From an uncultured Clostridia bacterium (GTDB taxonomy: Bacteria; Bacillota; Clostridia; TANB77; CAG-508), in assembly GCA_944392105.1 (NCBI GenBank), contig CALXVM010000003.1, positions 40,735-104,734 on the forward strand: a stretch of 64,000 nucleotides of DNA. The letters run 5' to 3'. Positions 12,960 to 52,562 of this stretch are shown here, piece by piece; the stretch's first letter is position 1; each line of letters opens with the position of its first letter. The position numbers and the translations under genes were made by a program. The notes beneath the pieces were generated by a model. That model did no database searches. It worked only from the letters and a program-made list of their open reading frames with translations, and had not been told where the DNA came from.

Positions 12960-13053
12960 TAACTTTTTTCTTATTTTACTATTCCCTTTTAATAATTTTT
13001 ATAGTATAATATTAATAGTTGTGAAAATTCTTCAAGTTTAGGAGGTGGGTAAT

Positions 13054-36843: not shown

Positions 36844-36924
36844 ATTAATTACTCCGTTTTATTATAATATTTTTCTTCTAACATCCCTAACATATATTAA
36901 ATCATATTTATTAACATATTTCAA

Positions 36925-37461
36925 TCAATAGGTATTATTGCTTATGTCTATATTAAAATAATCTCCACCTCTTGCATCAAATTCTATATAAATATTGCTT
37001 TCTGTTTTAACTTTCCATAGAGCCATGTCACTTTCTATGTTGTTTTCGAATTCTATAGTTTTAATTTCTTCATTTTTAAATCCATATTCTTCTAATATAT
37101 TTTTTGCTTTTTTTATTGCGTCTTCTTCAGTTATAATATTACTTTGTATAATATTTTCTGTATCTTTTTTTTGCTCTTCTATATTATTGTATATGCTATG
37201 AGTTTTTTCTTCATTTTTTTCAATCTCAGCTACTTTTTCAGGTGCTTTTTTTATAACGCTATAAGTTTTAGTCCCTGCATAAACTATTCCTATAACCAAA
37301 ATTAAACATGCACATGTTGTTAATGCAATTTTAAAAAACGAATATTTCTTTTTTTTAACTTTTACACTTTCTATACTTTCTTTAATAACTGTTCTAACTT
37401 TAGTCGGTACTTCCTTTTCTTCTCCCAAGTCATGAAATAACTTTTTTTCTATATCATTCAT
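36925..37461 (-). CDS. anti-sigma-factor-like single-pass membrane protein with PepSY-like C-terminal domain
   Basis: Its start overlaps the ECF sigma stop (ATGA). It has a short cytoplasmic N-terminus, one TM, and an extracytoplasmic domain (ITEEDAIKKAKNILEEYGF...). Confidence 0.6.
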   Translation of the reverse strand: MNDIEKKLFHDLGEEKEVPTKVRTVIKESIESVKVKKKKYSFFKIALTTCACLILVIGIVYAGTKTYSVIKKAPEKVAEIEKNEEKTHSIYNNIEEQKKDTENIIQSNIITEEDAIKKAKNILEEYGFKNEEIKTIEFENNIESDMALWKVKTESNIYIEFDARGGDYFNIDISNNTY

Positions 37462-37988
37462 TAATAATTCTCCCCTTTTTCTATAATATTTTTGATTTTT
37501 TGAATTGCTCTTGTTCTTTTAGTTTTTACAGTATTTATTTTTAAATTTAGTACTTCTCCTATTTCTTTGTCTGTAAATCTGTTCATATAATATAAAATTA
37601 CTATAGTTCTATCCTCTTCTTTTAATTTATTGCTTATAAATTTAAAATCTAATTTTATATTGGATTTTTCAATACTACTATCATTTATGCTTTGAGCATT
37701 TGCTATTTCTTCAAACGGTATTAAGTTTCTTTTTTTATTTCTTTTATAAATTAAATTTGTTTCATTTATTAAAATTCTTATTAACCAAGTTTTAAAGTAC
37801 TGATTTTCCTTTAATTTTCCTATGTTTTTATAAGCTATAATAGTAGTTTCTTGTATTGCATCATATACGTCATCATCGTCTTTTAATCTAGATTTTGCAA
37901 TATAATATAATTCTCTTTCCACCATTAACATAAGTTTTGTAAAAGAATTTTTATCTCCATTTTTTGCTTTTTCTACTAATTCCTCCAT
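37461..37988 (-). CDS. ECF-type sigma-70 family sigma factor
   Basis: Region 2 (AIQETTIIAYKNIGKL...FKTWLIRILINE) and region 4 HTH (FTDKEIGEVLNLKINTVKTKRTRAIQKI). Confidence 0.85.
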   Translation of the reverse strand: MEELVEKAKNGDKNSFTKLMLMVERELYYIAKSRLKDDDDVYDAIQETTIIAYKNIGKLKENQYFKTWLIRILINETNLIYKRNKKRNLIPFEEIANAQSINDSSIEKSNIKLDFKFISNKLKEEDRTIVILYYMNRFTDKEIGEVLNLKINTVKTKRTRAIQKIKNIIEKGENY

Positions 37989-38196
37989 GTTTCCTCCACT
38001 TTTATTTTCACACTTATTATATATATTTAGATAGCTTTTATGCCTTAAAAAGTTTCATTTTTATTTTATTTTTTGAAACTTTTTATAATTTATATATTCT
38101 CTAATATGTAATACAATTATAACATTTAAATTTTATGATAGTTATCATAAATTAAATTTGTTTAATTATTAATTGATATTATAGGAGGTTTTATTA

Positions 38197-38670: not shown

Positions 38671-38862
38671 CATTTTTTCTTAATTTAATAGATTTGCTTT
38701 TGATTATAATCCTTTTGTTTTTCTAATGTATACTACTCTATTACAATTTCATTTAAAGTTCTATGTTTCGTTCAAGTTACAAAAAGTTACATTTTTTTAT
38801 CTTTACAAGTTTAATTTCTTTGATATAATTTTTTTATAATAAATTTGAAAGGTGGGATACAT

Positions 38863-40107: not shown

Positions 40108-40164
40108 TAAATTCAATCAAAAAAACACCAAACGGTGTTTTTTTGATTTGTATATGATTATCTC

Positions 40165-40909
40165 TTAATCATATAAGTTCTTATTTTCTATCTTTAATAT
40201 AACCGTATTTATTACAGTTTTTATATTCGGTTTTTGTATCTCATAATTGTTAAAATATTCTTTTATTGTATTTTCTTCGCAATTATAATACATAGCTTCT
40301 GTTGCTCGAATTACACTACTTTTAACGCTTCCTATTTTTATTATATTTTTTTGCAATTATGGGATATATATCTTTATTCATATTTACTATTACGTTAGAA
40401 TATTCTGTATAAACAATATATATAATGTCTTCTAAATATTGTGTTCCTTTATGCGAAAAATTATATCTTAAATAATGCAATTCACTTTGAATATTTAATT
40501 TTAATTTATTTTTCTTTTCAAAATAATTTTTTTCCAAAATTATTTTATCTATAGCGTTACATAATTCATATATTTCTGTCTGCTGTGATAATATAGTATA
40601 AATCATTTCATTTATTATATATTTTTTTTCAGCATAATCATTATATTTTAATTTTATTATAAGACTTTTTTTGTATTTTCGTCTTTTTTTTGGCATAATT
40701 TTATCTAAGTTTAAGGCAATATTGCGCAATGGCATTTTTAAATTTAATAATATTATGTCAATTTTTTCATCATTATTTAAAGTTCTTATAGCATCATTAA
40801 TGTCTGTTGATAGCTTAATTACTCTTATATCTTCCGAAATTCGATTTATCTGTGTCATTATTTCATTAGCTTCATAAATATTATCATCTATAATAAATAC
40901 ATTTACCAT
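40165..40909 (-). pseudogene. Spo0A-like regulator (degenerate receiver + Spo0A C-terminal domain) split by a frameshift
   Basis: ORF 40322..40909 ends ...HKGTQYLEDIIYIV...DIYPIIAKKYNKNRKR*. ORF 40165..40356 continues in another frame with ...SVKSSVIRATEAMYY...KPNIKTVINTV. Together they reproduce the Spo0A_C pattern. The frames switch in an A-rich run around 40322..40356. The receiver phospho-acceptor position reads LLNLKMP (Asn instead of Asp). Confidence 0.65.
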
Positions 40910-41586
40910 TTTTATTACCTCTATATTATTAGAGTTAAAAATGATTATAAACGTTTCAAAATTTAATAAATATATGTAAATATTTTATATTTATGAGACT
41001 TATATTCTATCTTTTTAATCTATCAAATCACTAATTTACCTTTGCAAAAAGTTTAGCATGTCCCCAAAAACTACTACTTATAAAAAGTTTTTTATAGAAT
41101 TTTTCTTTTGTTCATCTAATTCATTGTCGTTATAAATCATCCATTAATACTTTATAAGCAGTTTTTTCTTTCATTGCGTTGCTTATAAATCTACTAATTA
41201 ATAAAATACTTACGGTCATAATATCTATTAACAATATCATAAATTTAGTTTTTTAGATATTTTCCTCTTTTTTAGATTTTCAAAAAATAATAAAATATTT
41301 TTATATTTTGGTATATTCTATTTCAAGTATTATTAAAGTAAAATATATTCACAAAAGGTTTAAAAAATTTAACACTTTCACAACTGGCTTGTTTCTAATT
41401 ATCAAATAACTCTTTTACTTATTTATGTTATGATAATAATTATCAATTTGTATTTTGAGTTTTTGTGTTAGTTCATTTGTTAAATCTTCAGAATCTTTCA
41501 TTTGTAAATATTTTTCTATAACATCTTTGGGAAAAATACTATAATCACTATAGGACTCTATATCTTCAGTATTTATACTATTTGAG

Positions 41587-41922
41587 CTAATAACTTCTCC
41601 GTTCTTTATATGTAATTTTATATAGCTTTGTATAAAAATTGTTAAGTTTTAATACTTGATTTTCTATATTGTAGTTAGCAATTAAAACAACTATATAAAG
41701 GTCTGTATTTTCTCCATTTTCAATTTCTTCAATTTTGCTTGTTGAAATAAATGTTTCTAATTTTTCTTTTTCTAATAAGTGATTTATTAGAAATTCACTA
41801 TCTCCAACTAATTGCATTTTTGGTGGCAAAGTCATATAAAAAAGAATATAATAGCCTACAAATAAACCCAAAATTATTGCGACTAACATTATAAGTATAG
41901 TTAAAAGATATTTTTTTTTCAT
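41587..41922 (-). CDS. small membrane-anchored hypothetical protein (possibly truncated)
   Basis: 111 aa with an N-terminal TM. An open frame continues downstream after a frame change (41420..41586), suggesting decay. Its upstream promoter is shared with the 42563 gene. Confidence 0.4.
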   Translation of the reverse strand: MKKKYLLTILIMLVAIILGLFVGYYILFYMTLPPKMQLVGDSEFLINHLLEKEKLETFISTSKIEEIENGENTDLYIVVLIANYNIENQVLKLNNFYTKLYKITYKERRSY

Positions 41923-41962
41923 ATTTTTCCCCTTTTATTTTCCCATAATTTATTTCATATTA

Positions 41963-41991
41963 ATTTTACTATTTTATCTTGTAAAATGCAA
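41963..41991 (-). promoter_or_regulatory. promoter TTGCAT-17-TAAAAT (repeat copy 1)
   Basis: On the minus strand, the -35 is at 41991..41986 and the -10 at 41968..41963. The same 38-nt block ATAGTTTGCATTTTACAAGATAAAATAGTAAAATTAAT recurs at about 43000..43036. Confidence 0.5.
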
Positions 41992-42013
41992 ACTATCGTT
42001 TTATTATAACATA

Positions 42014-42436
42014 TTACTCAATCTTTTTTAACTCTTTTTTGGTATAATTATAATTTAACAGTATAAATAATAAACCGAAATAAAATACCAATAAAATTAT
42101 ACTAGTAAAAAAAATGAACCCTGTCATATTTTTATCTTCTATCATATATAAGTTCGATGCATTATCTATTTTTGTATTCTCTTCTTTTAGATAATTTATT
42201 TCATATTGTTGGAAATAAATTATATCAAAATCCCTTACCGTATCTGCCCATCTGTTTGTTTTTAAAAATAATATATATGAATCACTTGGCAATCCTAATT
42301 CTAAATTTAAATTTTCATTTTTAAAAAACATAATAACATAATCTTTGATGCACCATTTAAAGCTAATTATTATTAAGGTAACAATCAAAATAAATATTAG
42401 TATATTTGTAAATATACATACAAATTTTTTCATCAT
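42014..42436 (-). CDS. hypothetical two-TM membrane protein
   Basis: 140 aa with TM segments at both ends. A decayed paralog lies at 47974..48223. Confidence 0.45.
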   Translation of the reverse strand: MMKKFVCIFTNILIFILIVTLIIISFKWCIKDYVIMFFKNENLNLELGLPSDSYILFLKTNRWADTVRDFDIIYFQQYEINYLKEENTKIDNASNLYMIEDKNMTGFIFFTSIILLVFYFGLLFILLNYNYTKKELKKIE

Positions 42437-42562
42437 ATCTCCTTTTCATATTTTGAACTGGTTTTGTCTAAAATAGATTTTATGCTATATAATTCTTATT
42501 TTTATAATTCTATATAACAATATTTCTCTAATAATAAAAAACCGCATAAATTCAAGAAACAA

Positions 42563-42985
42563 CTATTCCATTTTGGGTATAATCTTATATTTTATTATAA
42601 ATATACAAAATAGTAATATTATAAAATAAGGCAATGAATATTTGATAAAAGCTTCTCCTTTTCCATTATGTTCTCTTACAAATTCAGGAGATACACCTAT
42701 TTCTATACTTTTATAAAACAAACTTGGAAAATATTGCATAATTTTAACTTCATTATTTTCCATGTTATAATCAGCTTCTAGAGTGATTATACTAAAATTT
42801 CCTATACTATATATTCCTTCATTTCTTAATGCTTTTCTATTTTTATTATTACACCACATTACGCTATCATAATGTAAATATATTGTAAACAGTGTTTGGA
42901 ATATTCTAATAATTGCTATGCTAACTATTAGAATTATAAAGATTATCAAAACAAAATATTTTATTTTTTTTACATTTTCCTTCAT
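42563..42985 (-). CDS. hypothetical two-TM membrane protein (paralog of 48322..48696)
   Basis: 140 aa. It aligns along its length with 48322..48696 (IAIIRIFQ(T/A)L(F/L)TIYL(H/Y)YDSV ... NGKGEAFIK(Y/C)SLPYFIILLF). The paralog lacks a 16-aa segment. Confidence 0.5.
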   Translation of the reverse strand: MKENVKKIKYFVLIIFIILIVSIAIIRIFQTLFTIYLHYDSVMWCNNKNRKALRNEGIYSIGNFSIITLEADYNMENNEVKIMQYFPSLFYKSIEIGVSPEFVREHNGKGEAFIKYSLPYFIILLFCIFIIKYKIIPKME

Positions 42986-43000
42986 ATTTTCCCCTTATTA

Positions 43001-43029
43001 ATTTTACTATTTTATCTTGTAAAATGCAA
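43001..43029 (-). promoter_or_regulatory. promoter TTGCAT-17-TAAAAT (repeat copy 2)
   Basis: On the minus strand, the -35 is at 43029..43024 and the -10 at 43006..43001, upstream of 42563..42985. Confidence 0.5.
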
Positions 43030-43203
43030 ACTATATAAACTATTTATTTTTCTTAATCTACAATCAATTCAATATTTTTACCCAAATTTATAGTCGGCAT
43101 AGTAATATACTCTTTTTATAGCCCACAACAAAAGTGGATTAAAGTGGAAAAATTTGACTTTATGTTACAATTTGGTATAATTATACATATTGGAGGGGAT
43201 TTG

Positions 43204-44229
43204 ATGAAGAGAAGTATTGTTATAGCAATTTCTATAATAATTTTATTTATACTCATTTTTGCAATAGTTTTAATTTTTATAGTAAAACACAAAGAAACTG
43301 CAGATACTCAAGAACCTGATACAAGTATAGTTTCACATTATAATAGTCCTGTTATTCCAGAAGGATTCCATTCAATTGATACAGAAACTGCAAAATGGAA
43401 TAAATTAGAAGATGGAACTATAGAGGGATGGAATTCAGGATTAGTAATAGAAGATAGTATTGGAAATCAATTTGTTTGGATTCCTGTCAACTTAGATTTT
43501 CCTGAAGACGCTGTTTATAGAACTGTAAATCAATATAAGAAAGATGAATTAGATATAAATAATATAGAAGATATGCAAATTATCAGATATGGAGGTTTTT
43601 ATATTTCCAGATATGAAGCTGGTGTACCTGATTCATTACAAGGCATAACTGATAATATTAGTGAAAAAACTAATGATATTCAAGGAATTCCAGTAAGCAA
43701 AAAAGGAATTATCCCTTGGAATTACATTAGTCTAAAAAATGCAAAGAAAAATGCTGAAAGTATGTATTCATCTCAACATTTAAGTAGTGGACTTCCAACA
43801 TTGAAACAAAGAGATTTTATTGCATTTTGGCTTTTATTATGTGGATACGATTTATATGATATATATGTTGATAGTTCCCCTATTGGTAATTATTCAAATG
43901 TAAATTTTGAGTTTACAGGTTATTATTCAGAGGATTATGGTAAAAGCTATAAATTTGGAGAAAATCATTTAAAAGCTGGCAGCAATATGATTTTATCTAC
44001 TGGTGCAACAGATAGAAATATGACCAATAATATATATGATTTAGCCGGAAATGTATGGGAGTATAGTAATAATTATTTTCCGCCAGATTCTCCAGATGAT
44101 ATTAAGGGATATATTTGCTATGGTGGTCATTTTGATAATATTGGTTCTTATAATTTATCTGCAGATGCTTTGAAAAACGTTGTTCCTCTTGAAAAAGTCG
44201 GATTTAGAATTGTGCTTTATCAGAAATAA
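43204..44229 (+). CDS. membrane-anchored FGE-sulfatase/SUMF1-like domain protein
   Basis: ATG 43204 behind GGAGGGG. An N-terminal TM, then GGFYISRYEAG, DLAGNVWEYS and a C-terminal VGFRIVLY. These match the family pattern of f-Y-I-x-k-y-E, G-N-V-W-E-W and G-F-R. Confidence 0.6.
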   Translation: MKRSIVIAISIIILFILIFAIVLIFIVKHKETADTQEPDTSIVSHYNSPVIPEGFHSIDTETAKWNKLEDGTIEGWNSGLVIEDSIGNQFVWIPVNLDFPEDAVYRTVNQYKKDELDINNIEDMQIIRYGGFYISRYEAGVPDSLQGITDNISEKTNDIQGIPVSKKGIIPWNYISLKNAKKNAESMYSSQHLSSGLPTLKQRDFIAFWLLLCGYDLYDIYVDSSPIGNYSNVNFEFTGYYSEDYGKSYKFGENHLKAGSNMILSTGATDRNMTNNIYDLAGNVWEYSNNYFPPDSPDDIKGYICYGGHFDNIGSYNLSADALKNVVPLEKVGFRIVLYQK

Positions 44230-44292
44230 AATATTTTATAGTTTGTGGAAGTACACTTAATATAAAAAATATATAATTAGGAGTAATTTTAC

Positions 44293-45012
44293 ATGAGTAC
44301 ATTAGTAATAGTAGATGACAACCTAGACTTTGTTATAAATTTATATAATCAAATAGTACAACTTCAAATACCTAAATTGCAAGTAACTTGTATAAATTCA
44401 AATGGTAAAGAAGCTATAAATACAATTATAAAATTAAAACCAGATATTGTTTTATTAGACTTATTTTTACAAGACATTAGTGGAATAGATGTATTAGATG
44501 AATTTATTAAACATAAAATAAACACTAAAATAATTGTTATGTCTGGTTATCCAGATTTAATTTATAAATGTCATGATAAAAAGTATTATAATTATATATA
44601 CAAAATATTAGCTAAGCCTTTTAATTATAAAGATTTATCTACTTTATTACAAACTTTATCTATTGAAAACAATTCTAAATTTTTAAGGACAGCTATTATT
44701 AACCAACTTAATTTGTTAAACTTCAGTCATAAATCTATTGGCTATAATTACTTAATAGACACTATTAGTTTAATTTTGGAAAGAAATTATAAGAGTTACA
44801 ACTTGGAAAAAGATATTTATGTACAATTATCTAAACAGTATAAAAATGTTAAAGCTTTTCAAATAAAGTGGAATATAGAAAAGCTAATACGAACGATGTA
44901 TAGAGACACTAATATACATACTTTGCACAACTTTTTTAACACTGATGAAGATACTAAACCAACTACAAAATTAATTATTAATACAGTTATAGACAAATGC
45001 ATAAACAGCTAA
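44293..45012 (+). CDS. Spo0A-like response regulator (intact receiver + Spo0A C-terminal DNA-binding domain)
   Basis: The receiver has DD (IVDDN), an acceptor Asp (VLLDLFL), Ser (IVMSG) and Lys (LAKPF). The C-terminus reads HKSIGYNYLIDTISL...IYVQLSKQYKNVKAFQIKWNIEKLIRTMY...KPTTKLIINTVIDK, matching the Spo0A_C pattern (GYxYLxxAI...YPxIAKKYxTTxSxVERAIRHAI...KPTNSEFI). Confidence 0.7.
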   Translation: MSTLVIVDDNLDFVINLYNQIVQLQIPKLQVTCINSNGKEAINTIIKLKPDIVLLDLFLQDISGIDVLDEFIKHKINTKIIVMSGYPDLIYKCHDKKYYNYIYKILAKPFNYKDLSTLLQTLSIENNSKFLRTAIINQLNLLNFSHKSIGYNYLIDTISLILERNYKSYNLEKDIYVQLSKQYKNVKAFQIKWNIEKLIRTMYRDTNIHTLHNFFNTDEDTKPTTKLIINTVIDKCINS

Positions 45013-45053
45013 TATACATTATATATTAGCTATTTATTCTTATTAATATTTAA

Positions 45054-45419
45054 TTATTTCACATGCTTATTTTCATAACTGCACACGATTGTATAAATAA
45101 TAAGCTTTAAGCTTGGTTTTAAATTTTCTGGCAACATAAAATATTTTGATATAATATCTATTGGTGTATTATTATACATTGTAGTAATACACTGCTCTAT
45201 GCACCATTTTATTGATAAATAAGATTTTTCATCATGCCTTTTTGCTATTATTGGAAAAACATTTCTTGTCAAATTATCTATAGCATTTTCATTTATTATG
45301 CATAAACATATGGCTTCTTTTAAATATTTATATCCTTTTGTTCCTCTTCTAAAATCAAATTTGCACAACTCGTTTTCTATGAATTGCTTGATGGCTTTTT
45401 CATTTGTGATTTTATTCAT
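45054..45419 (-). CDS. stand-alone Spo0A C-terminal-domain protein (no receiver)
   Basis: TKGYKYLKEAICLCI...NVFPIIAKRHDEKSYLSIKWCIEQCITTMY...KPSLKLIIYTIV. Its start overlaps the end of the GH25 gene by 8 nt. Confidence 0.65.
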   Translation of the reverse strand: MNKITNEKAIKQFIENELCKFDFRRGTKGYKYLKEAICLCIINENAIDNLTRNVFPIIAKRHDEKSYLSIKWCIEQCITTMYNNTPIDIISKYFMLPENLKPSLKLIIYTIVCSYENKHVK

Positions 45420-46191
45420 CCTTTGTACCTCCTTTAATTATCAATTTTGTGCCTATTTGTATTAAATCTGGATTATTTCCTATAACCTCTTTATTAGAAT
45501 TATAAATTTCTTGCCATGTTGTGTTGTACTTTCGTGCAATATATGTAAGATTATCTCCTGGCTGTACTATATAAACTATTTTATTTTCTATTATGTTATT
45601 AAGTAATTTGTCATTCATTAAATAATCAATATCTACATAGCCTTTTATACCATTTAATTGACCTTCGTGTGTAAATTGCCATATATCATACTTTCCGTTA
45701 TAATCACATTTATTAACTTCAGTTTGAGCAACCCAAATACTAAAGTCAGCAAATTTACTATCATCTAAATAATTTTTAAACCAATCTAAGTTTGCATAAA
45801 CTCCGGCTTTATACCCATTTTCTTTAATTATTTTCAAAAATTCTATACATAAATTTGTTAACTTTTCTTTGCCCTCCTGTAGCAACGTTGAGTCTTCCAT
45901 GTCAATGTAGATTGGTAGTTGTATTTTTTTATTTTTCATTTTGTTGACAACCCATTTTGCTCCTTCTATAATGGAATCTATATTATTGCAATAATTATAA
46001 ACATATATCCCAATATTCATATTTTGTTTGGTACACTCTTTATAATTTCTACTAAATTTGCTATCTACATAATTAGGTTCATCATCATATATATTTCCTA
46101 ATTTCAATATTGCAAATTTCACATTTGCCTGCTTTACTTCTTCCCACTGTATATTTCCTTGATTTCCACTTACATCGATTCCAATAACCAT
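45412..46191 (-). CDS. GH25 muramidase with C-terminal LysM domain (endolysin-like, no signal peptide)
   Basis: The N-terminus MVIGIDVSGNQGNIQWEEVK...FAILKLG is typical of GH25. The C-terminus YIVQPGDNLTYIARKYNTTWQEIYNSN...IQIGTKLII is LysM. Confidence 0.8.
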   Translation of the reverse strand: MVIGIDVSGNQGNIQWEEVKQANVKFAILKLGNIYDDEPNYVDSKFSRNYKECTKQNMNIGIYVYNYCNNIDSIIEGAKWVVNKMKNKKIQLPIYIDMEDSTLLQEGKEKLTNLCIEFLKIIKENGYKAGVYANLDWFKNYLDDSKFADFSIWVAQTEVNKCDYNGKYDIWQFTHEGQLNGIKGYVDIDYLMNDKLLNNIIENKIVYIVQPGDNLTYIARKYNTTWQEIYNSNKEVIGNNPDLIQIGTKLIIKGGTKDE

Positions 46192-46416
46192 TTTATAATC
46201 CCTCCTTTAATATATTCTCTATATACTTCCTCACTAATTTGCTTTTTTACGAAGTAATATTCTAAAATTATTATATTTATTTTTTTAAATATTTTTTATT
46301 AAGTGGTTTAATATAGATTTTTATGGTAAAAATAACTTTTTTATCTACATTCAACTACTTTATCTTCAATAGAACTTCATTTAAGTTATTATTATAAATG
46401 AAAGGAGGTGTTAAAT

Positions 46417-46953
46417 ATGGCTTCACCTTATTTAGTTGTAAACGCATCAAATAAATATTATGACATTTATGACATGAATACTGGAAAGAAAATGGCTTTA
46501 TTGTATCCACGAGAAGCTTTCATAATCATAGACAATGAAGGAGTAATATGGAATATAAAAATTAGAAACTCTGCTGGAAAAATTGTTAATGTTGTAGTAC
46601 ATGATAAAGAAAACTTCATTGGAGATAATTGTAAACCTTGTTATTTCTTCCCTTATGGAAAGAAAGTTATTGATGGTCGTGAATATGAAACTTATTTGAT
46701 GCGTAAGGCAAAAAACATTTATACTCCTTCTGCCGATTACTGGGGAGGAGTAGCTCAGAATATGTTAGTTGCAAGTAATAATGATATAGTTGGAGAAACA
46801 CATTCAACTTGGAAAGCAATAGACTATGTTAAACGTAGCACTGATGGTAAATGGGTTAAAGTATCTGGTCAAGGATATGATTATGGTTTTGTAGAAACTG
46901 GTCTAGAGGACGGTTCTATGTATTACAATATTCCATTTTATGGTTCTTGGTAA
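46417..46953 (+). CDS. hypothetical 178-aa protein, no signal peptide
   Basis: ATG 46417 behind AAAGGAGG. Followed by a strong terminator. W/Y/G-rich, with no TM and no recognised family. Confidence 0.5.
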   Translation: MASPYLVVNASNKYYDIYDMNTGKKMALLYPREAFIIIDNEGVIWNIKIRNSAGKIVNVVVHDKENFIGDNCKPCYFFPYGKKVIDGREYETYLMRKAKNIYTPSADYWGGVAQNMLVASNNDIVGETHSTWKAIDYVKRSTDGKWVKVSGQGYDYGFVETGLEDGSMYYNIPFYGSW

Positions 46954-46965
46954 ACTCGAAACAGA

Positions 46966-46997
46966 AAAAAACAGAGGAAAAGTTCCTCTGTTTTTTT
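46966..46997. terminator. bidirectional terminator AAAAACAGAGGAAAAGTTCCTCTGTTTTTTT
   Basis: 7-bp GC-containing stem with an A-run and a T-run. A near-identical hairpin recurs at 47918..47949. Confidence 0.7.
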
Positions 46998-47017
46998 GCC
47001 TACTATTATATATTTTT

Positions 47018-47269
47018 TTAATCTTGTACTATCTCCTTAAAATTCCATGCTTCTCCACCATTTATTTCATTTAAATGATTCGCTGTAAATGAAAAATCCC
47101 CAGGAACCTCTATCCAATCCCTTCCATTAGTAGTTATATACAAATCGCTTTCTTCAAATTTGTAAGACATATTCTTTTCATTATGTGAGTTTATATAATA
47201 TAAAATTAAAACTATTGACATTAATATAATAATTATGACTATACTGATTATAATTATTCTTTTTTTCAT
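47018..47269 (-). CDS. truncated paralog of 47304..47819 (N-terminal TM + first ~50 aa of ectodomain)
   Basis: MSYKFEESDLYITTNGRDWIEVPGDFSFTANHLNEINGG aligns with MNYKFEEEKLYITINGKEWMEVPYDFSITANHLKEANNG. Confidence 0.45.
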   Translation of the reverse strand: MKKRIIIISIVIIIILMSIVLILYYINSHNEKNMSYKFEESDLYITTNGRDWIEVPGDFSFTANHLNEINGGEAWNFKEIVQD

Positions 47270-47303
47270 TCTCTCTCCTCTTCTAATACTTCAATCTGTT
47301 AAC

Positions 47304-47819
47304 TCAATACCATTCGCTCCCCCCATTTTTAGTTATTGCAGTATATTTATTTCCATCTAATCCTTTTAATACTATTTCTCCATGTTGTCTATCTTTGAAA
47401 TATATCTTATCTATAACGTCTAAATAGTTTTTAGTTGTTATATGATAACTATTCCATGTTTTTCCTCTATCATCCGAACATATTAATATAATAGCATATT
47501 TGCCACCAGTATACATTTGATAAGTTTCATCTGTTTCTACCTCACTATAAAATACAATTTTACTTTTGTCCATTTGATATGTGCCTTCTCTATATCTTCC
47601 ATTATTTGCTTCTTTTAGGTGATTCGCTGTAATAGAAAAATCATATGGCACTTCCATCCATTCTTTTCCATTTATAGTTATATATAACTTTTCCTCTTCA
47701 AATTTATAATTCATATTTTTGTCATTATTAATAATTAGATAATATACTAATATAGCTATTACAATTAAAATTATGAATACTATAAAGAATATTATTTTTT
47801 TCTTTTTCATAGATTCCAT
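47304..47819 (-). CDS. membrane-anchored protein with a BNR/Asp-box motif
   Basis: An N-terminal TM. CSDDRGKTW fits the SxDxGxTW Asp-box. Confidence 0.5.
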   Translation of the reverse strand: MESMKKKKIIFFIVFIILIVIAILVYYLIINNDKNMNYKFEEEKLYITINGKEWMEVPYDFSITANHLKEANNGRYREGTYQMDKSKIVFYSEVETDETYQMYTGGKYAIILICSDDRGKTWNSYHITTKNYLDVIDKIYFKDRQHGEIVLKGLDGNKYTAITKNGGSEWY

Positions 47820-47917
47820 CTCCTATTGAAATTATATATTTGTTATTATTATAAGTCAATATAAACTTAGAGTTTAAGTTAAACGAATAAAATATTTAAT
47901 CTATTTTTACATCTAAG

Positions 47918-47949
47918 AAAAAACAGAGGAAAATTTTCCTCTGTTTTTT
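47918..47949. terminator. second copy of the ACAGAGG/CCTCTGT terminator hairpin
   Basis: AAAAAACAGAGGAAAATTTTCCTCTGTTTTTT. Confidence 0.65.
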
Positions 47950-47973
47950 ATCAAGTACTTCTAATATAACATA

Positions 47974-48223
47974 TCACTCAGTCTTTTTTAGTATAATTAT
48001 AATTTAACAGCATAGATAACAAAGCTAAATAAAATACCAATAAAATTATACTAATAAAAAAATGAAACCTGACATATTTTTATTTTCTGTCATATATAAA
48101 TTCGATGCACTATCTATTTTTACATTTTCGTTTTTTAAATATTTTATTTCATATTGTTGGAAATAAATGATATCAAAATCACTTACTATATCTGTCCATC
48201 TATTTGTCTTTAGAAATAATATT
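47974..48223 (-). pseudogene. 5'-deleted copy of the 42014..42436 membrane-protein gene
   Basis: The DNA aligns with 42014..~42270, including the stop position. The part carrying the start codon and first TM is missing, with the junction near 48223. No ORF of 60 aa or more is listed here. Confidence 0.6.
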
Positions 48224-48321
48224 TGTCTAAAATATATCTTATGTTATTTTTATAATCCTGTATAACAATAATACTTGTTGTTTTTCTCATTAATAAAAAA
48301 ACAGATAAATTTGATAAATAA

Positions 48322-48696
48322 CTATTCCATTTTTGGTATAATCTTATATTTTATTATAAATATACTAAATAGTAATATTATAAAATATGGTAATGAACAC
48401 TTTATAAAAGCTTCTCCTTTTCCATTACGTTCTCTTACAGTTTCAGGAGATACATTTATTTCCGTACTTTTATAAAACAAGCTTGGAAAATATTGCATAA
48501 TTTTAACTTCATTATTTTCCATTCTATAATCAGTTTTCAAAGTAATTATACTAAAATTTCCTATACTATAAACACTATCATAATATAAGTATATTGTAAG
48601 CAGTGCCTGAAATATTCTAATAATTGCTATGCTAATCACTAAGACTGTAATAATTAAAAAAATAATATGTTGTATTTTTTTTATATTTTTCATCAA
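48322..48696 (-). CDS. hypothetical two-TM membrane protein (paralog of 42563..42985)
   Basis: 124 aa, lying immediately downstream of the 782-aa hydrolase gene on the same strand. Confidence 0.5.
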   Translation of the reverse strand: MMKNIKKIQHIIFLIITVLVISIAIIRIFQALLTIYLYYDSVYSIGNFSIITLKTDYRMENNEVKIMQYFPSLFYKSTEINVSPETVRERNGKGEAFIKCSLPYFIILLFSIFIIKYKIIPKME

Positions 48697-48747
48697 TTTA
48701 GTCTAAACCTTTCTCTAAACCAATTTCTTATTATATATTACTATTTA

Positions 48748-51096
48748 TTATACCATAGAACTTATTTTTTTTGCAAACGCTTTAGCAACATTTTCCAATA
48801 GCACTGGCATTGTAGCTGGCTTTTCAGTAATTACAATTTCGAATGCAGTTGCTGCTAATCCCTCTAAATCTGTTATTTTAATATTTAAATAACTTCTTGC
48901 AACCTTATATGCTTTATTATATATTGAATCACTTTTCTGAATATCTCCTGGCATATTTCCATATTGTTCTCTGTTATTAATAAAGCCCTCTCCTCTTCCA
49001 ATGATTATATCATTATAATAAGAACTAAATACCATATCTATTCTTATATTATTTAAACTTTTATATAACATCCAAACATCAATATCTTGTAGCAAATCTT
49101 CTAAATCAAATCCCAAATTGCTTGCTGCATCTGTATTATCTCCTAAAATCTGTTCTATAAATTCCTCTGAAAGACTAGGATAATCACCATTTTTATATTT
49201 TTCTTCATAACTACCGGCAAATTGTATTAAGTCGCCAGCCCAACCAGTCAAGTCTACAATAATAGAATCTACCGAAGCAACTCCTGTCCTATTATTCAAT
49301 ACTAAATACATTGATGCACATAAGTGTGATAAAGTAATCAGTTTATTATAGCCACCTACATATATTGGTAAGTCACGTCTATCTTTAGAAATATTATTAT
49401 TTATATAGTTTATTCCATTCATATCATATTCTAACAATAAATTCCATTCAATAGAATTATAATTTTTATAGGCAATGTATTGTATAACTAATGAATTGTT
49501 TTCCTTTATAGTAGCAGAATTACCATGATATGCAGCTGCTAATTCATAAGCTTCTTTCAAGAAATTTATAATTTCTTCATTTTCTTGAGATAATGATATA
49601 TTTTTATTTAAACTTGATATTGGTTCTATCTCTCCTCTATATGTTACTTTATCTATATCTAATTCATTTTCAAAATTAGTTATTTCTTTAAATTGATCAT
49701 AATTCCAGTTCTGTGGCATTTTTTGGCCTATGTTGCAAGAATATCCTGATGACATGTCCGCTACAAAACTACTTTCTGCTAATCCAGCTTCAGAAACTCT
49801 TTGGCAAACTAATCGTGGTCCATATATTCCTACTTTATATCTATTTCCTATACCTTCATTTATTCCTTTAAAAAATTCTACAATATAATCCTCTATTTGG
49901 TCTTCATATACATCCAAATCAACAGCAAAATATATAACTGTCTCATCAGGAATTAGATTAGTTATCGCTGCTTCTCTCGCTCTTTGCCCAGATTTTTTTC
50001 CTTTTGCATAACTAAAATCTGTAATCTGTCTATTGTTTTCTTGATAAATCGGAAAAACTTTTAATCCTGAATTCAATATAGTCTCAATTTCTCCAAATTG
50101 TAGTGCTTTAGGCTTTTCTTCACTAATATATCCCGTTAAATATCTTCCTACAACTTCGAAACCATTTTCTTTTAGCAATCTAGCCCTATCTTCTGTTATT
50201 TCAAAACAAGTATCACATGCATTTGCTGCCCTCGACGTATCTCCGCAACTTACAGCTAAAGCAAACCAAGTTTGAGGTCCTACACTTCCATCAACTTCTA
50301 AATGCATTAATTCCTGAAATTGCATAACAGCATTTCTTGCTCCATTCCCAAAGCTTCCATCAAATCCATTAGGGTCAAATCCATTTAAAAATAATAAATA
50401 TTGTAATAAATAAATTAAGTCTGTATTACTAGACCCAATAGTCAATGCTGGTAAAGCATTTTTGGTTGCATCTCCCCATGAACCATCTATATCTACTCCT
50501 ATTTCATATTGAACAGCCATTTTTATTACTTTATTTGTATTTCTATCATATAATCCATTAGTAGCTAAATAATCTCCCATCATACTTAAATATTTTCTAT
50601 TCAACGCTTGTTGTATTTCTCTAACTTTAATGTTATATTCATTATCAATAGTTGTATATGCATCTGTAGTCAAAATAGCTTTCATATCTATTGCTCTTAC
50701 TATTCCATCAGGATTTTCTAATCCTAATTGCGTTTTCATTGTAATTATTCCTTCTTCTGTAGTATCTGAAAACAATTCCAAATTGTTCCAATCTCCAGCA
50801 ATACCTCTACAAAATAATCCTCCATTAACAATAACATTTATATTTTTTTGCTGCTGCGTATCTGCTATTATATTCTTAGACAACCCATTTGGATATAATG
50901 AATTAAATGCTGATTTCGTTCCAGGTCCAAAAGAACCATCTACATCTAATCCTAACTCTATTTGTAATGCTCTGATCAATCCTGCTACTGTTTTTATTCC
51001 TGTTTCTCCATCTGTTTCTACCTGTACCCAATTTTTATTTCCAAAATATGTTGTATTCATCCATCTCTGTACTTCTAACACTTTCTGATCTGCCAT
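48748..51096 (-). CDS. large peptidoglycan hydrolase-like protein: PG-binding repeats + DUF1906 (Rv2525c-like glycoside-hydrolase-like) domain + unknown C-terminal domain; no signal peptide
   Basis: Three PG_binding_1-type repeats (LQIELGLDVDGSFGPGTKSAF; IGVDIDGSWGDATKNAL; DGSFGNGARNAVMQFQELMHLEVDGSVGPQTWFAL). These are followed by ITEDRARLLKENGFEVVGRYLTG...IYFAVDLD...VGIYG, typical of DUF1906. The ~290-aa C-terminal region is unassigned. Confidence 0.7.
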   Translation of the reverse strand: MADQKVLEVQRWMNTTYFGNKNWVQVETDGETGIKTVAGLIRALQIELGLDVDGSFGPGTKSAFNSLYPNGLSKNIIADTQQQKNINVIVNGGLFCRGIAGDWNNLELFSDTTEEGIITMKTQLGLENPDGIVRAIDMKAILTTDAYTTIDNEYNIKVREIQQALNRKYLSMMGDYLATNGLYDRNTNKVIKMAVQYEIGVDIDGSWGDATKNALPALTIGSSNTDLIYLLQYLLFLNGFDPNGFDGSFGNGARNAVMQFQELMHLEVDGSVGPQTWFALAVSCGDTSRAANACDTCFEITEDRARLLKENGFEVVGRYLTGYISEEKPKALQFGEIETILNSGLKVFPIYQENNRQITDFSYAKGKKSGQRAREAAITNLIPDETVIYFAVDLDVYEDQIEDYIVEFFKGINEGIGNRYKVGIYGPRLVCQRVSEAGLAESSFVADMSSGYSCNIGQKMPQNWNYDQFKEITNFENELDIDKVTYRGEIEPISSLNKNISLSQENEEIINFLKEAYELAAAYHGNSATIKENNSLVIQYIAYKNYNSIEWNLLLEYDMNGINYINNNISKDRRDLPIYVGGYNKLITLSHLCASMYLVLNNRTGVASVDSIIVDLTGWAGDLIQFAGSYEEKYKNGDYPSLSEEFIEQILGDNTDAASNLGFDLEDLLQDIDVWMLYKSLNNIRIDMVFSSYYNDIIIGRGEGFINNREQYGNMPGDIQKSDSIYNKAYKVARSYLNIKITDLEGLAATAFEIVITEKPATMPVLLENVAKAFAKKISSMV

Positions 51097-51200
51097 AAAA
51101 CAACCTTCTTTCTAAATTTTTTACTTATAATTAGCGCTAACTTCTATAAGTTATTAATATTATAGAAAATATTATCTTATTTTTTCTAAAAAGTGGTGTT

Positions 51201-51677
51201 TTATATATTTTTGAGGTATATTCTTTTTATTTTATTCAATGCATCACGCAAGCTATACTGTATGTTCCTTATTGAACACTGCTCTATATTAGCTATTTCT
51301 TTTTCTTTTAAATTAAGAAAATAGTGTAAATATATTCTTTTTTTCTGCTTATATGTTAGTTTATTTATTGCACTATTTAGTTTTTCTATTTCTATATTAT
51401 AAATAGCCAAATCTTCAATAATAATATTAATCTTAAAAGCCTTTTTATATAGCTCATTTTCTTTTATTCTTTTATGCTCAATATGTCTGTCATACTCATT
51501 CATTATCTTTTTATCTTCTAATTCGAACTTATTCATCTCTTCATATATTTGTTTGCTAATTTTTACTTTATTATATTCTAAGTTTATATTTTTAAATTTT
51601 ACAAAATATTCATTATTATTAATTTCTAAATAGTATGGATTATATTTGTCTCTTCTTCTCTTTGGTTTTTCTTCCAT
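51201..51677 (-). CDS. small sigma-70 region-4-like transcription regulator of the mobile-element type
   Basis: Start MEEKPKRRRDKYNPYYLE at ATG 51677 behind GAGGTG. The C-terminus LTYKQKKRIYLHYFLNLKEKEIANIEQCSIRNIQYSLRDALNKI is a sigma region-4 HTH. The N-terminal KRRRDKxNPY...FELEDKK pattern recalls small sigma-like proteins of Firmicute transposons and ICEs (from memory). Confidence 0.6.
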   Translation of the reverse strand: MEEKPKRRRDKYNPYYLEINNNEYFVKFKNINLEYNKVKISKQIYEEMNKFELEDKKIMNEYDRHIEHKRIKENELYKKAFKINIIIEDLAIYNIEIEKLNSAINKLTYKQKKRIYLHYFLNLKEKEIANIEQCSIRNIQYSLRDALNKIKRIYLKNI

Positions 51678-51683
51678 AAAATA

Positions 51684-51728
51684 CACCTCATCTTAAATTT
51701 TTTGAACTTTAAAATTTAAAATGAGGTG
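51684..51728 (-). promoter_or_regulatory. long hairpin sequestering the Shine-Dalgarno of the sigma-like gene (or terminator of the holin transcript)
   Basis: The arms 51684..51701 and 51711..51728 pair at 17 of 18 positions. The 3' arm on the minus strand contains the GAGGTG SD, 6 nt before ATG 51677. Confidence 0.5.
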
Positions 51729-51920
51729 GTGCTCTTATTTCTATATAAAAAAATAAACTTATATACTTTATTGTATTACAAAGTATAAAGTTTATCTTTT
51801 CTAAAAAATCTTTGGTTCAATTATAACTCCAATCATAAAAAATATTTTTATGATTATATAAAAAGGAACTTGCAAAATCCCACGAAATTTGTCGAATTTT
51901 ACCAAGATATGTATTTTTTT

Positions 51921-52397
51921 CTATTCTTTTGTATTATTATCTGAATTACTTTTATTTTCTATTAATTCATTATATTTTTCTAACCCTTTAACTAAAAAGT
52001 TTGGTATTTTTATTCCTATATCTATTAAATTTTCTAAAATGCTCCTTGCTTCATTTATTATTAAACATGCTAATGTAAACCATCCAAAAAACATTATAAA
52101 ATCTATATTTAGGTTAATTTTCTGTCCAATCTGAGTAAGTAAATAAGAAATTAAAAAAGTTAAACATATTAAAATCCAATAGGAAACTTTTTTTATTATT
52201 CCTATCAATCCTTTACTTGAGCTTTCGGTGCTATTTACTTTGGCTTTTATAACTCCTGTTACATAATCAAGAATATTTAATATTAAGTAGCCAGCAAACA
52301 ACAGCCATTCTATTCCAAACGTAACATTTAAATAGGTTATTATAGCACTTATTATATTTCCTATTCTATTAAATATTTTAAAAAATTCTTCTTTCAT
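51921..52397 (-). CDS. holin, toxin-secretion/phage-lysis (TcdE / phage_holin_4_1-like) family
   Basis: Start MKEEFFKIF. Three hydrophobic segments. It has the ILDYVTGVIKA...SSKGLIGIIKKV motif typical of this holin family and a charged C-terminal tail. Confidence 0.7.
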   Translation of the reverse strand: MKEEFFKIFNRIGNIISAIITYLNVTFGIEWLLFAGYLILNILDYVTGVIKAKVNSTESSSKGLIGIIKKVSYWILICLTFLISYLLTQIGQKINLNIDFIMFFGWFTLACLIINEARSILENLIDIGIKIPNFLVKGLEKYNELIENKSNSDNNTKE

Positions 52398-52410
52398 TTC
52401 TATCACATCC

Positions 52411-52445
52411 TAGAAATATTATAATAATTAATTATAATATTTCTA
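52411..52445. promoter_or_regulatory. 35-bp palindrome (14-bp perfect arms) overlapping TATAAT boxes just upstream of the holin gene
   Basis: TAGAAATATTATAA-TAATTAA-TTATAATATTTCTA. The arms are at 52411..52424 and 52432..52445. It is a candidate operator or promoter. Confidence 0.4.
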
Positions 52446-52562
52446 AAAAAATAGATTTTTATTGTCTTTTATAGAAATATTTGTTTAACCCTTGAATTTT
52501 TTAATAGAATAAAATGGCGTATTATTCCTCTTTTAAAGAACTAAAAGAGAAGAAGTGCAGTA

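Follow-up and report, generated by a model that had tools for sequence, protein, structure and literature searches.

Strongly diverged Spo0A paralogues on a mobile holin-lysin cassette and in an adjacent ECF-sigma block of an uncultured Clostridia bacterium

Three genes that encode Spo0A C-terminal-type DNA-binding domains lie within 5 kb of one another in the genome of an uncultured Clostridia bacterium (assembly GCA_944392105.1, contig CALXVM010000003.1), which raises the question of whether such copies act on the sporulation programme of the host or serve the DNA that carries them. A preliminary description, made from the letters alone, had placed all three in accessory DNA and had proposed that they mimic or hijack the Spo0A regulon, or else tie lysin and holin expression to the sporulation decision. 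In the following, the window is the whole 64,000-nt stretch analysed (contig positions 40,735 to 104,734), and all coordinates refer to it (Table 1).

We searched the three genes with the Pfam model Spo0A_C (PF08769, cut-off 25 bits), a check that had been suggested at the outset, and all three scored above the cut-off: the gene at 44293-45012 on the forward strand (40.6 bits, with 47.7 bits for Response_reg), the gene at 45054-45419 on the reverse strand, of which it is the sole Pfam domain (43.6 bits), and the reading frame at 40322-40909 on the reverse strand (26.1 bits, with Response_reg at 19.1 bits, below its cut-off). We refer to these as the regulator, S0AC and the third gene, respectively. 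They are real, strongly diverged Spo0A paralogues, and none of them is the sporulation regulator. The regulator and the third gene are collinear end to end with the genome's own Spo0A and have the same two-domain plan as the Spo0A of Bacillus subtilis and Clostridia; however, the paralogues are only 20–28% identical to Spo0A, have a replaced recognition helix, are without the long inter-domain linker, and reach only 32–58 bits against the Spo0A equivalog model TIGR02875 (cut-off 200 bits), the regulator matching it end to end at 58 bits. They are also multi-copy and lie on accessory DNA, far from the bona fide spo0A (156 bits), which is located elsewhere in the genome. The initial assumption that Spo0A_C is normally a single-copy domain does not hold here: the source genome encodes six copies, spo0A included, while its relatives encode 1–16 each, with more than one in 32 of 41 and 16 in one of them. 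Among 1.84 billion proteins, the family comprises 329 cluster representatives (E<=1e-3), including stand-alone, receiver-bearing and tandem-repeat forms.

The three genes form no single unit. Their assignment to accessory DNA was correct, and there are two accessory blocks: the regulator and S0AC are on a 10.5-kb cassette, while the third gene is in an adjacent block (35476-41991) together with an ECF sigma/anti-sigma pair and secreted proteins. The cassette encodes two small membrane proteins, a 341-aa protein, the regulator, S0AC, a GH25-LysM lysin, a sigma factor, a holin, proteins of 181, 171, 83 and 124 aa, and a 782-aa wall hydrolase/toxin. It is accessory and mobile: the sister strains L013-L016 and L020-L022 share the leuS...adhE context and lack the cassette as a clean indel, and its occurrence in the closest relative, L007, is in another context, adjoining a serine recombinase; related cassettes adjoin conjugation genes (TraG, ArdC, PcfJ, SSB). 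The holin is the most conserved cassette gene after S0AC (61–68% identity in diverged cassettes). The sigma factor, which is present in about half of the cassettes, likely starts at the ATG at 51677, and its L007 orthologue has 158 aa.

Table 1. Features of the two accessory blocks, in window coordinates
Feature	Position	Strand	Evidence or remark
ECF sigma (37461-37988) and anti-sigma-like membrane protein (36925-37461)	36925..37988	-	Pfam, NCBIfam
Third Spo0A paralogue, pseudo-receiver	40165..40909	-	Spo0A_C 26.1 bits
Frameshift site, coding-strand A5 where intact alleles have A7	40335..40339	-	DNA alignment with L013, L012; 12-locus alignment
Accessory cassette, 10.5 kb	41992..52538	.	clean indel relative to sister strains
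Candidate element facing small membrane-protein gene 42563-42985	43129..43148	-	15.6 bits
341-aa N-terminally anchored membrane protein	43204..44229	+	recurs in related cassettes
Orphan response regulator, complete receiver and diverged Spo0A_C output	44293..45012	+	Pfam, NCBIfam, alignment
S0AC, receiver-less Spo0A_C protein, 121 aa, last gene of lysin operon	45054..45419	-	Pfam 43.6 bits
GH25-LysM lysin without signal peptide, directly upstream of S0AC	45412..46191	-	Glyco_hydro_25 102.7 bits, LysM 43.2 bits; PHROG endolysin
Candidate element ahead of lysin-S0AC operon	46308..46327	-	14.1 bits
Candidate element ahead of 782-aa gene, overlapping sigma stop codon	51188..51207	-	14.2 bits
Small sigma factor, only region 4 recognised	51201..51686	-	Sigma70_r4_2 31.2 bits
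Perfect canonical 0A box, TGTCGAA (TTCGACA on gene strand)	51890..51896	+	about 210 nt upstream of cassette sigma gene
Holin, Phage_holin_4_1	51921..52406	-	Pfam 99.1 bits
Candidate element ahead of holin gene, ACAATAAAAATCTATTTTTT	52446..52465	-	19.0 bits

The stand-alone family to which S0AC belongs is tightly conserved and is found with the holin cassette wherever the locus is long enough (15 of 17 loci), the two loci that lack the holin being contigs of 2.7 and 3.4 kb in which a sigma gene lies directly upstream. In 10 of the 17, the gene directly preceding S0AC is that of the lysin; S0AC usually comes last and overlaps or abuts the lysin gene. In the window, the S0AC start codon (45419-45417) lies in the 8-nt overlap with the lysin's terminal GAT GAA TAA, and its Shine-Dalgarno sequence, AAAGGAGG, sits within the lysin 3' end, bearing out the early suggestion that the two genes are coupled; overlaps of 4–8 nt recur among relatives. 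The AlphaFold2 model of S0AC (pLDDT 92.5) matched only Spo0A C-domain structures in Foldseek (1LQ1 and 1FC3, TM 0.7–0.9), with the same six-helix output fold. Homologues form 92 clusters in which Spo0A_C is the only Pfam domain, nearly all of 109–135 aa, and in 58 sequences of 49–91% identity the recognition helix hardly varies. The dN/dS ratio is 0.13–0.35, the exact 121-aa sequence occurs on 395 contigs, and no truncated allele was found among the 15 cluster members listed. Within the genus, only 3 of 51 species have true S0AC.

The regulator, described from the start as having an intact receiver, indeed retains every phosphorylation residue (D8, D9, D56, S84, K108), and the closest relative of this receiver within the source genome is that of Spo0A; a search for a histidine kinase near the gene found none. 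It is probably co-transcribed with the upstream gene for the 341-aa membrane protein, which has a near-consensus sigma-A promoter (43154-43181), and whose product matches no family in Pfam or NCBIfam and gave an unusable AlphaFold2 model (pLDDT 41). The regulator has a dN/dS of 0.23 relative to its L007 orthologue, and the 239-aa form occurs on about 345 contigs. Since a full-length regulator accompanies S0AC only in some cassettes (this window, L007, L017/L019 and L024/L044), and since about 22 contigs (about 6%) carry a GAA-to-TAA nonsense allele, it is not essential to the cassette.

It is scarcely credible that the regulator and S0AC are functionless remnants of an element that has decayed. 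The nonsense allele, and the lack of a recombinase inside the cassette in this genome, would fit such decay, but both genes are under purifying selection, gene order and the start/stop overlap are conserved, and neither the near-invariance of the S0AC helix nor the number of contigs that share its untruncated sequence would be expected of genes without a present function.

Alignment to 1LQ1 showed that the Spo0A recognition helix, RVERAIRHAIE, is replaced in the paralogues by QIKWNIEKLIR, SIKWCIEQCIT or SVKSSVIRATE. The helices of the regulator (FQIKWNIEKLIRTMY) and S0AC (LSIKWCIEQCITTMYNNT) have the pattern IKW[N/C]IE..I.TMY in common, and the two C-domains are 33% identical, sharing IKW.IE. 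Both differ from Spo0A at the positions that are reported to read the 0A box, which suggests that the two cassette proteins bind an operator of their own.

A candidate for this operator emerged from a Gibbs motif search over 10 diverged cassettes. It is a conserved element of 20 bp, wCYAYAAAAAwCTAYTTTT, whose two CYAY boxes are spaced by 10 bp, or one helical turn; in nine of the cassettes it is found 59–88 nt ahead of the start codon of the holin gene. A weight matrix built without this window matched the 1.5-Mb genome at 29 sites scoring more than 14 bits, of which four lie in the cassette (about 0.2 expected), although the motif comes from DNA so rich in AT that weight matrices have little power, and the genome's top match (window position 12745, 20.7 bits) lies outside the cassette. 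Each of the four lies upstream of an operon and is oriented toward it, and the one ahead of the holin gene ends 9–22 nt upstream of two overlapping TATAAT hexamers. The site at the big toxin gene scores 14–21 bits in L023, L024, L037 and L043; the chance of at least 14 bits in a random 303-nt stretch is 0.001. From this conservation we infer that the element is the operator of the holin, toxin and lysin operons.

In the mechanism that we propose, the regulator and S0AC would bind the CYAY element, which precedes the holin gene, the toxin gene and the lysin-S0AC operon just upstream of a TATAAT −10 hexamer that has no good −35 hexamer. Spo0A binds tandem 0A boxes head to tail, an arrangement that the tandem CYAY boxes would mirror, and the candidate operator resembles Spo0A-activated promoters in having two boxes one helical turn apart by the −35 region. 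Removal of the receiver is a known way of making Spo0A signal-independent; as S0AC has no inhibitory receiver, it may be a phosphorylation-independent activator, and as its own operon carries the box, positive feedback could lock the cassette ON. The regulator, which would be made from the sigma-A promoter convergent on the lysin-S0AC operon, would provide a phosphorylation-dependent input on the same box. The element's place beside the −35 region would suit a repressor as well.

The alternative that was put forward initially, namely that the paralogues, above all the receiver-less one, bind host 0A boxes and switch sporulation on or off to the benefit of the element, appears improbable. While S0AC has the Spo0A_C fold and its missing receiver is an established recipe for signal-independent Spo0A, mimicry of 0A-box binding is unlikely because the DNA-reading helix is replaced in all three paralogues; moreover, the new form of the helix is conserved across the 58 family members, the equivalog scores fall well below the cut-off, and the cassettes conserve an element other than a 0A box. 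The closest precedent for such mimicry is in human-gut phages, which carry truncated spo0A homologues (phrog_24603) that have been read as acting on host sporulation (Schwartz et al. 2023, mBio, PMC10294663). Like these, S0AC is a receiver-less stand-alone effector domain on mobile DNA of gut spore-formers. However, its match to phrog_24603 is weak (23.6 bits), relatives were absent from the IMG/VR viral contigs, and 50,697 phage records yielded a single weak match. S0AC instead travels with a holin/toxin/lysin cassette on conjugative-type elements, and its helix argues against action on host sporulation genes. The related proposal of a tie between lysis genes and the sporulation decision survives in part, not by way of the paralogues: the perfect canonical 0A box ahead of the sigma gene in the cassette hints at a separate input from host Spo0A. 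Of four other independent cassettes, two (L024 and L049) also have TTCGACA at most 300 nt ahead of the sigma gene, a recurrence noticed after the fact, and L007 has the box with one mismatch.

We give somewhat more credence, though still little, to the possibility that the 20-bp element is recognised by the sigma factor that the cassette encodes, leaving S0AC another role as a repressor, an immunity-type silencer, or a sigma partner acting through the surface with which Spo0A touches sigma region 4. The element adjoins the −35 region, about half of the cassettes have a sigma factor, and diverged Spo0A paralogues lie beside alternative sigma factors in every context examined. Against this, the motif and S0AC persist in cassettes without a recognisable sigma within 8 kb (L023, L037, L039, L042, L045), the −10 hexamer downstream is an ordinary TATAAT such as the housekeeping sigma typically uses, and the two-box layout with its 10-bp spacing matches the binding of Spo0A_C to tandem boxes. 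In a variant of this alternative, a sigma encoded outside the examined stretches could have the element as its promoter signature.

The third gene is split into reading frames of 195 aa (40322-40909) and 63 aa (40165-40356), has Asn at the acceptor position (N56), as had been noted, and has lost the Ser/Thr and Lys positions. The lesion was first described as a 1-nt frameshift in an A-run; the A-run and the net shift of one position stand, but alignment with intact alleles (AAT AAA AAA ATA GGA) shows a 2-nt deletion. Like other aspartate-less receiver regulators, the third gene and two further paralogues of this genome keep the receiver fold, with Asn, Glu or a gap in place of the acceptor Asp and with losses at other catalytic positions; they differ from such regulators in their Spo0A_C output domain and in their consistent linkage to ECF sigma/anti-sigma pairs, the pairing being repeated beside the two other pseudo-receiver paralogues and in the relatives P0004, P0012 and P0021 (six of six contexts examined).

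Sister strains have intact alleles of 248 and 250 aa, and across strains we counted at least six independent lesions, mostly poly-A indels. The dN/dS ratio is 0.18–0.21 between lineages and about 0.2 even between two broken alleles, indicating that the lesions are recent, which is compatible with switching. On balance we modestly favour recent and repeated loss over reversible phase variation. A contingency regulator, switched ON and OFF by poly-A slippage with its open frame under selection, is nonetheless a tentative possibility of some substance: the gene has five tracts of at least seven A (6.7 per kb, compared with 1.41 per kb genome-wide) and two A8 runs (0.15 per kb genome-wide), whereas the neighbouring regulator and S0AC have no such tracts; indels have occurred in five different tracts, on three different backgrounds in the case of the A8 at coding position 281; and there is a broken allele whose sole difference from an intact one is the indel. 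However, another allele is broken by a TGA nonsense codon rather than by slippage, double-lesion alleles exist, about 88% of contigs carry a broken gene, the 2-nt loss of the window is unchanged on 108 contigs from many samples that share the exact 195-aa product, and runs of A5-A8 are short for classic contingency loci.

We consider the account as a whole, that is, cassette paralogues with an operator of their own and a third gene that has been repeatedly broken, to be somewhat better than an even chance on the comparative evidence. By analogy, the cassette may resemble bacteriolysin and holin-dependent release loci (Bac41 of Enterococcus faecalis; clostridial sigma-plus-holin loci), with which it may share private regulators inside the locus, a wall-active protein that has no signal peptide and, besides the holin and the small sigma factor, candidate immunity genes. 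To our knowledge, none of the described loci of this kind uses Spo0A-derived regulators; the regulator and S0AC look like private regulators of a mobile cell-wall-attack cassette.

Consistent with the preliminary description, which had assigned three neighbouring genes to Spo0A-type regulators, all three exceed the Pfam gathering cut-off for Spo0A_C (PF08769, 25 bits): a full-length response regulator (hereafter, the regulator), the receiver-less 121-aa protein S0AC, and a frame-broken pseudo-receiver paralogue (the third gene), whose domain is divided between two reading frames (see the table). They fall outside the NCBIfam Spo0A equivalog TIGR02875, scoring 58.4, 32.2 and 35.4 bits versus a curated whole-protein cut-off of 200 bits. 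The regulator and the third gene align to TIGR02875 along their entire length, which argues that these two long genes descend from a whole spo0A-like gene; within the genome, the nearest relative of the regulator's receiver is that of Spo0A. The bona fide spo0A of this uncultured Clostridia genome (1.5 Mb, ~26% GC, 98% complete) lies 27 kb upstream of the window, scores 156 bits for the Pfam domain alone and encodes the canonical helix TPSRVERAIRHAIEVAW. The window is chromosomal DNA, and its accessory stretch is bounded by housekeeping DNA, adhE on one side and leuS on the other.

Surveys score genomes as 'Spo0A-positive' by counting Spo0A_C. The domain is regarded as unique to Spo0A, and as the hallmark by which the master regulator of sporulation is recognised (PMC6136694); the Galperin preprint counts no more than two or three spo0A paralogues, and these in a small number of Clostridiales. 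The expectation that Spo0A_C is normally single-copy does not hold here: five diverged copies accompany the true spo0A, giving six in this genome, and the number ranges from 1 to 16 per genome among 41 relatives, 32 of which have more than one. An all-against-all HMMER search with S0AC as query recovered 329 cluster representatives (E<=1e-3), including stand-alone forms, receiver-bearing forms and a few with three to four tandem domains, while true Spo0A proteins ranked outside the top 150. In three metagenomic proteins of 390–450 aa (P0181, P0183 and P0192), Spo0A_C-like domains are repeated three or four times in tandem; we know of no description of such an architecture. Literature searches found such paralogue families undescribed except in PMC10294663 and in the paralogue count of the Galperin preprint.

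To be scored as a phosphorylatable receiver, a domain had to reach at least 30.2 bits (Pfam PF00072) and to contain an acidic pair, an acceptor Asp, Ser/Thr and Lys. The receiver of the regulator, read as complete from the sequence, contains D8, D9, D56, S84 and K108; in the third gene (19.1 bits), Asn does occupy the acceptor position (N56), as had been noticed, and the Ser/Thr and Lys positions are gone. As no HATPase_c gene was found on the cassette or its contig (10 occur genome-wide, non-kinase ATPases included), the regulator is considered an orphan. Alignment with 1LQ1 and the genome's own Spo0A indicated that the structural core is retained and the recognition helix replaced: instead of SRVERAIRHAIEVAW, the regulator has FQIKWNIEKLIRTMY, S0AC LSIKWCIEQCITTMY and the third gene GSVKSSVIRATEAMY. 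Thus, S-R-V-E-R-A-I-R-H of Spo0A becomes F-Q-I-K-W-N-I-E-K (regulator), L-S-I-K-W-C-I-E-Q (S0AC) and G-S-V-K-S-S-V-I-R (third gene), at positions that we take to be those touching the 0A box, the Spo0A site, in 1LQ1. The regulator is the nearest full-length relative of S0AC (33% identity), and IKW.IE..I.TMY is common to both. As judged from these alignments, all three genes are Spo0A-derived regulators with a predicted re-specified DNA-reading helix.

Positions of the Spo0A_C genes, their surroundings and the associated sequence elements (window coordinates)
Feature	Position	Strand	Remarks
Best genome-wide matrix match	12745-12764	+	20.7 bits; TCCATCAAAATCTACTTTTT; in 5' end of anaerobic ribonucleotide reductase gene, oriented toward gene at 13045
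adhE	30646-33249		housekeeping flank
Block containing third gene	35476-41991		PMT_2-like membrane protein, ECF sigma/anti-sigma, 157-aa, 420-aa secreted, third gene, 111-aa
Third gene, 63-codon ORF	40165-40356	-	next frame; rest of Spo0A_C domain
Third gene, 5' ORF	40322-40909	-	Spo0A_C 26.1 bits on domain's first half; receiver below cut-off
Third gene, shortened A-run	40335-40339		A7 to A5
Direct repeat (39 nt, perfect)	41958-41996; 42996-43034		across left cassette junction; 1 kb inside
Cassette	41992-52538		two small membrane proteins; 341-aa membrane protein; regulator, S0AC, GH25-LysM; proteins of 181, 171, 83, 124 aa; 782-aa protein; small sigma factor; holin
Small membrane-protein genes	42033-42984		duplicated at 47982-48695 beside 782-aa gene, 80-89% identity
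Candidate operator	43129		small membrane-protein gene; >14 bits
Near-consensus promoter	43154-43181		TTGACT-16-TGnTATAAT
Regulator	44293-45012	+	Spo0A_C 40.6 bits; receiver domain 47.7 bits (Pfam)
S0AC	45054-45419	-	Spo0A_C 43.6 bits, sole domain (Pfam)
Candidate operator	46308		lysin operon; >14 bits
Candidate operator	51188		782-aa gene; >14 bits
Sigma leader hairpin	51677-51745	-	18 bp; covers Shine-Dalgarno; dG -23.5 kcal/mol, z -6.9
0A box	51890-51896		TGTCGAA; ~210 nt upstream of sigma gene
Candidate operator	52446		holin; 19.0 bits
leuS	53086-55497		housekeeping flank

The AlphaFold2 model of S0AC (pLDDT 92.5) has the six-helix Spo0A effector fold, and its top seven Foldseek matches were chains of 1LQ1 or 1FC3 (TM 0.7–0.9), the next having E>1. 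Its homologues form 93 clusters, in 92 of which Spo0A_C is the sole Pfam domain; nearly all are 109–135 aa long, and the helix EKSYLNVKWCIEQVIKTMYNNT is almost invariant. The S0AC cluster itself has 25 members on ~430 contigs, with no shortened form among the 15 members listed, and dN/dS is 0.13–0.35. Coupling to the GH25-LysM lysin gene, as first read from the sequence, was confirmed: S0AC starts within the last codons of that gene (8-nt overlap) and has its own Shine-Dalgarno sequence, AAAGGAGG. Among 17 loci from uncultured gut Clostridia, a Phage_holin_4_1 holin (61–68% identity) lies within a few kb of S0AC in 15, the two others being contigs of 2.7 and 3.4 kb with a sigma factor directly upstream. 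A GH25 lysin directly precedes S0AC, overlapping or abutting it, in 10 of the 17; elsewhere the upstream neighbour is a sigma factor, the holin or another gene. True S0AC was found in only 3 of the 51 species of the genus. Receiver-less spo0A on mobile DNA is known from gut phages (PMC10294663). S0AC differs from that phage-carried truncated group (phrog_24603) in its contexts, which contain conjugation and recombinase genes instead. A phage origin was rejected by searches that gave one weak tblastn match in 50,697 phage records and no family member on IMG/VR viral contigs; plasmid records yielded no S0AC relatives and, for the regulator, generic receivers only. In this comparison, S0AC is the putative conserved heart of cassette regulation. 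The regulator accompanies it in some cassettes only (dN/dS 0.23), and a regulator allele with a GAA-to-TAA nonsense codon occurs on ~22 contigs.

The accessory 10.5 kb cassette that encodes both proteins is missing as a clean indel from sister strains sharing the leuS...adhE backbone (L013–L016 and L020–L022). The same cassette occurs in another context, adjoining a serine recombinase, in L007, and more distantly related versions are embedded in genes of conjugation type (e.g., TraG/TrwB, ArdC, PcfJ and SSB); no clear target-site duplications were seen at its ends. The cassette is modular, since sister contig L018 contains a partial version that retains the small membrane proteins and the gene for the 341-aa protein, without the regulators, lysin, toxin, sigma factor and holin. 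The 782-aa protein, the putative wall toxin, has peptidoglycan-binding and glycoside-hydrolase-like domains, and the duplicated small membrane-protein genes are candidate immunity genes. As the promoter at the 341-aa gene lies within a 361-codon ORF call, this membrane protein probably starts at ATG 43204, and the resulting length of 341 aa agrees with that in sister contigs. Neither Pfam nor NCBIfam supported a suspected likeness to an FGE-sulfatase domain, and its AlphaFold2 model, made from a 6-sequence alignment, was unusable (pLDDT 41). The operon of this gene, which probably includes the regulator, converges on the lysin–S0AC operon; the stop codons are only 41 nt apart, without a recognisable terminator. 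The leader of the sigma gene forms a hairpin, apparently a lock on translation of this factor; in other cassettes an anti-SD/SD pairing is retained with different letters (e.g., CCUCCAU/AUGGAGG and CCCCCAAUU/AAUUGGAGG), ahead of which lies a conserved GAG..CC. Rfam gave no match to this leader or elsewhere in 40–53 kb.

General-purpose scans of the AT-rich cassette for repeats and promoters gave nothing informative, and the candidate operator came solely from the comparison of diverged cassettes. A Gibbs sampler applied to the holin upstream regions of ten such cassettes detected a 20-bp element (consensus roughly wCYAYAAAAAwCTAYTTTT), with two CYAY boxes 10 bp apart, 59–88 nt ahead of the holin start codon in nine; at most holin sites it ends ~20–30 nt upstream of a TATAAT. 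With a weight matrix trained without the window, the whole genome gave 29 matches exceeding the threshold of 14 bits, and the cassette contains four of these versus ~0.2 expected. All four are upstream of, and oriented toward, an operon, one overlapping the stop codon of the sigma gene. Furthermore, the element precedes the large toxin gene in L023, L037, L043 and L024 (14–21 bits), where the chance of 14 bits in a random 303-nt stretch is 0.001, and it is kept together with S0AC in cassettes without a recognisable sigma factor. The best genome-wide match, in the ribonucleotide reductase gene, may mark a chromosomal target or have arisen by chance. From this distribution we infer that the element may be the operator of the Spo0A-like proteins, that S0AC would act without phosphorylation and feed back on its own operon, and that the regulator would supply a signal-dependent input. 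We found no description in the literature of the S0AC family, of its association with the cassette or of the candidate operator.

The third gene lies outside the cassette. Its block is 95.6% identical to sister contig L013, versus 79–89% for the flanking housekeeping genes, which looks like a separate recent recombinational exchange. Outside the window, the genome has two more pseudo-receiver Spo0A paralogues (C14:33567-38725 and C3:35624-37678), with Glu or a gap at the acceptor position; the block on C14 and that of the third gene are paralogous, with similar sigma, anti-sigma and regulator genes. In six of six contexts (these three paralogues and relatives P0004, P0012 and P0021), an ECF sigma and an anti-sigma-like gene lie within 1–2 kb of the paralogue. 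The regulator and S0AC look like servants of a mobile holin/toxin/lysin cassette, and the third gene like an easily broken partner of an ECF sigma module.

The frameshift was correctly placed in an A-run by the preliminary description, but two nucleotides are missing rather than one: intact alleles read AAT AAA AAA ATA GGA. Since an identical 195-aa product is encoded on 108 contigs, the deletion is a real allele rather than an error of assembly. Other strains have lesions of -1 in an A8 at coding position 219, -1 in an A8 at position 281 (three backgrounds), +1 in an A7 at position 377 and -1 in an A5 at position 675, as well as a TGA nonsense codon (in-frame in L012); some alleles carry two lesions, and the gene is intact on only ~12% of contigs. 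Broken alleles are found both alongside the cassette (L017, L019) and in strains lacking it (L020–L022), so a link between cassette and broken gene was rejected. The pattern would fit a phase-variable contingency gene: five poly-A tracts have indels across alleles, the between-strain length polymorphism by which contingency genes are recognised, and runs of at least 7 A/T are enriched ~5-fold (6.7 per kb versus 1.41 genome-wide), none occurring in the regulator and S0AC genes. However, the nonsense and double-lesion alleles speak against purely reversible switching, and between repeated recent loss and phase variation we therefore lean toward loss. That the lesions are recent is indicated by dN/dS between lineages of 0.18–0.21, also between two broken alleles.

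A further element bears on sporulation. Within the cassette, a perfect 0A box occurs only once, upstream of the sigma gene, and TTCGACA is also found within 300 nt upstream of that gene in L024 and L049 (mutated in L007), i.e., in three of five independent cassettes versus a chance of roughly 1–2% per site. As this recurrence was noticed after the fact, it is only suggestive of control of the cassette sigma factor by the host's real Spo0A. The proposed tie between lysis and the sporulation decision thus gains some ground, although the route would be the host Spo0A; overall, the interpretation offered in the preliminary description is supported in part. A combined reading, which we regard as doubtful, can be drawn: the Spo0A effector domain would have radiated in small-genome gut Clostridia into mobile-element regulators, its helix re-specified in each; S0AC would be a phosphorylation-independent activator on tandem CYAY boxes in the -35 region of holin, toxin and lysin promoters, its positive feedback locking the wall-attack cassette ON; and the 0A box at the sigma gene, with the orphan Spo0A-like regulator, would allow the trigger only as the host enters sporulation. 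If true, such a feed-forward circuit would link the decision to sporulate with the killing or lysis of neighbouring cells.

In this gut lineage, Spo0A_C is thus a family with up to 16 copies per genome, mostly on mobile DNA and with new recognition helices, so that domain counts over-call spo0A and 'phage spo0A' matches need not target sporulation. The family offers a testable regulator–operator pair for a widespread, uncultured holin-dependent wall-toxin cassette, and a natural series of domains for studying how DNA-binding specificity evolves in a master regulator.
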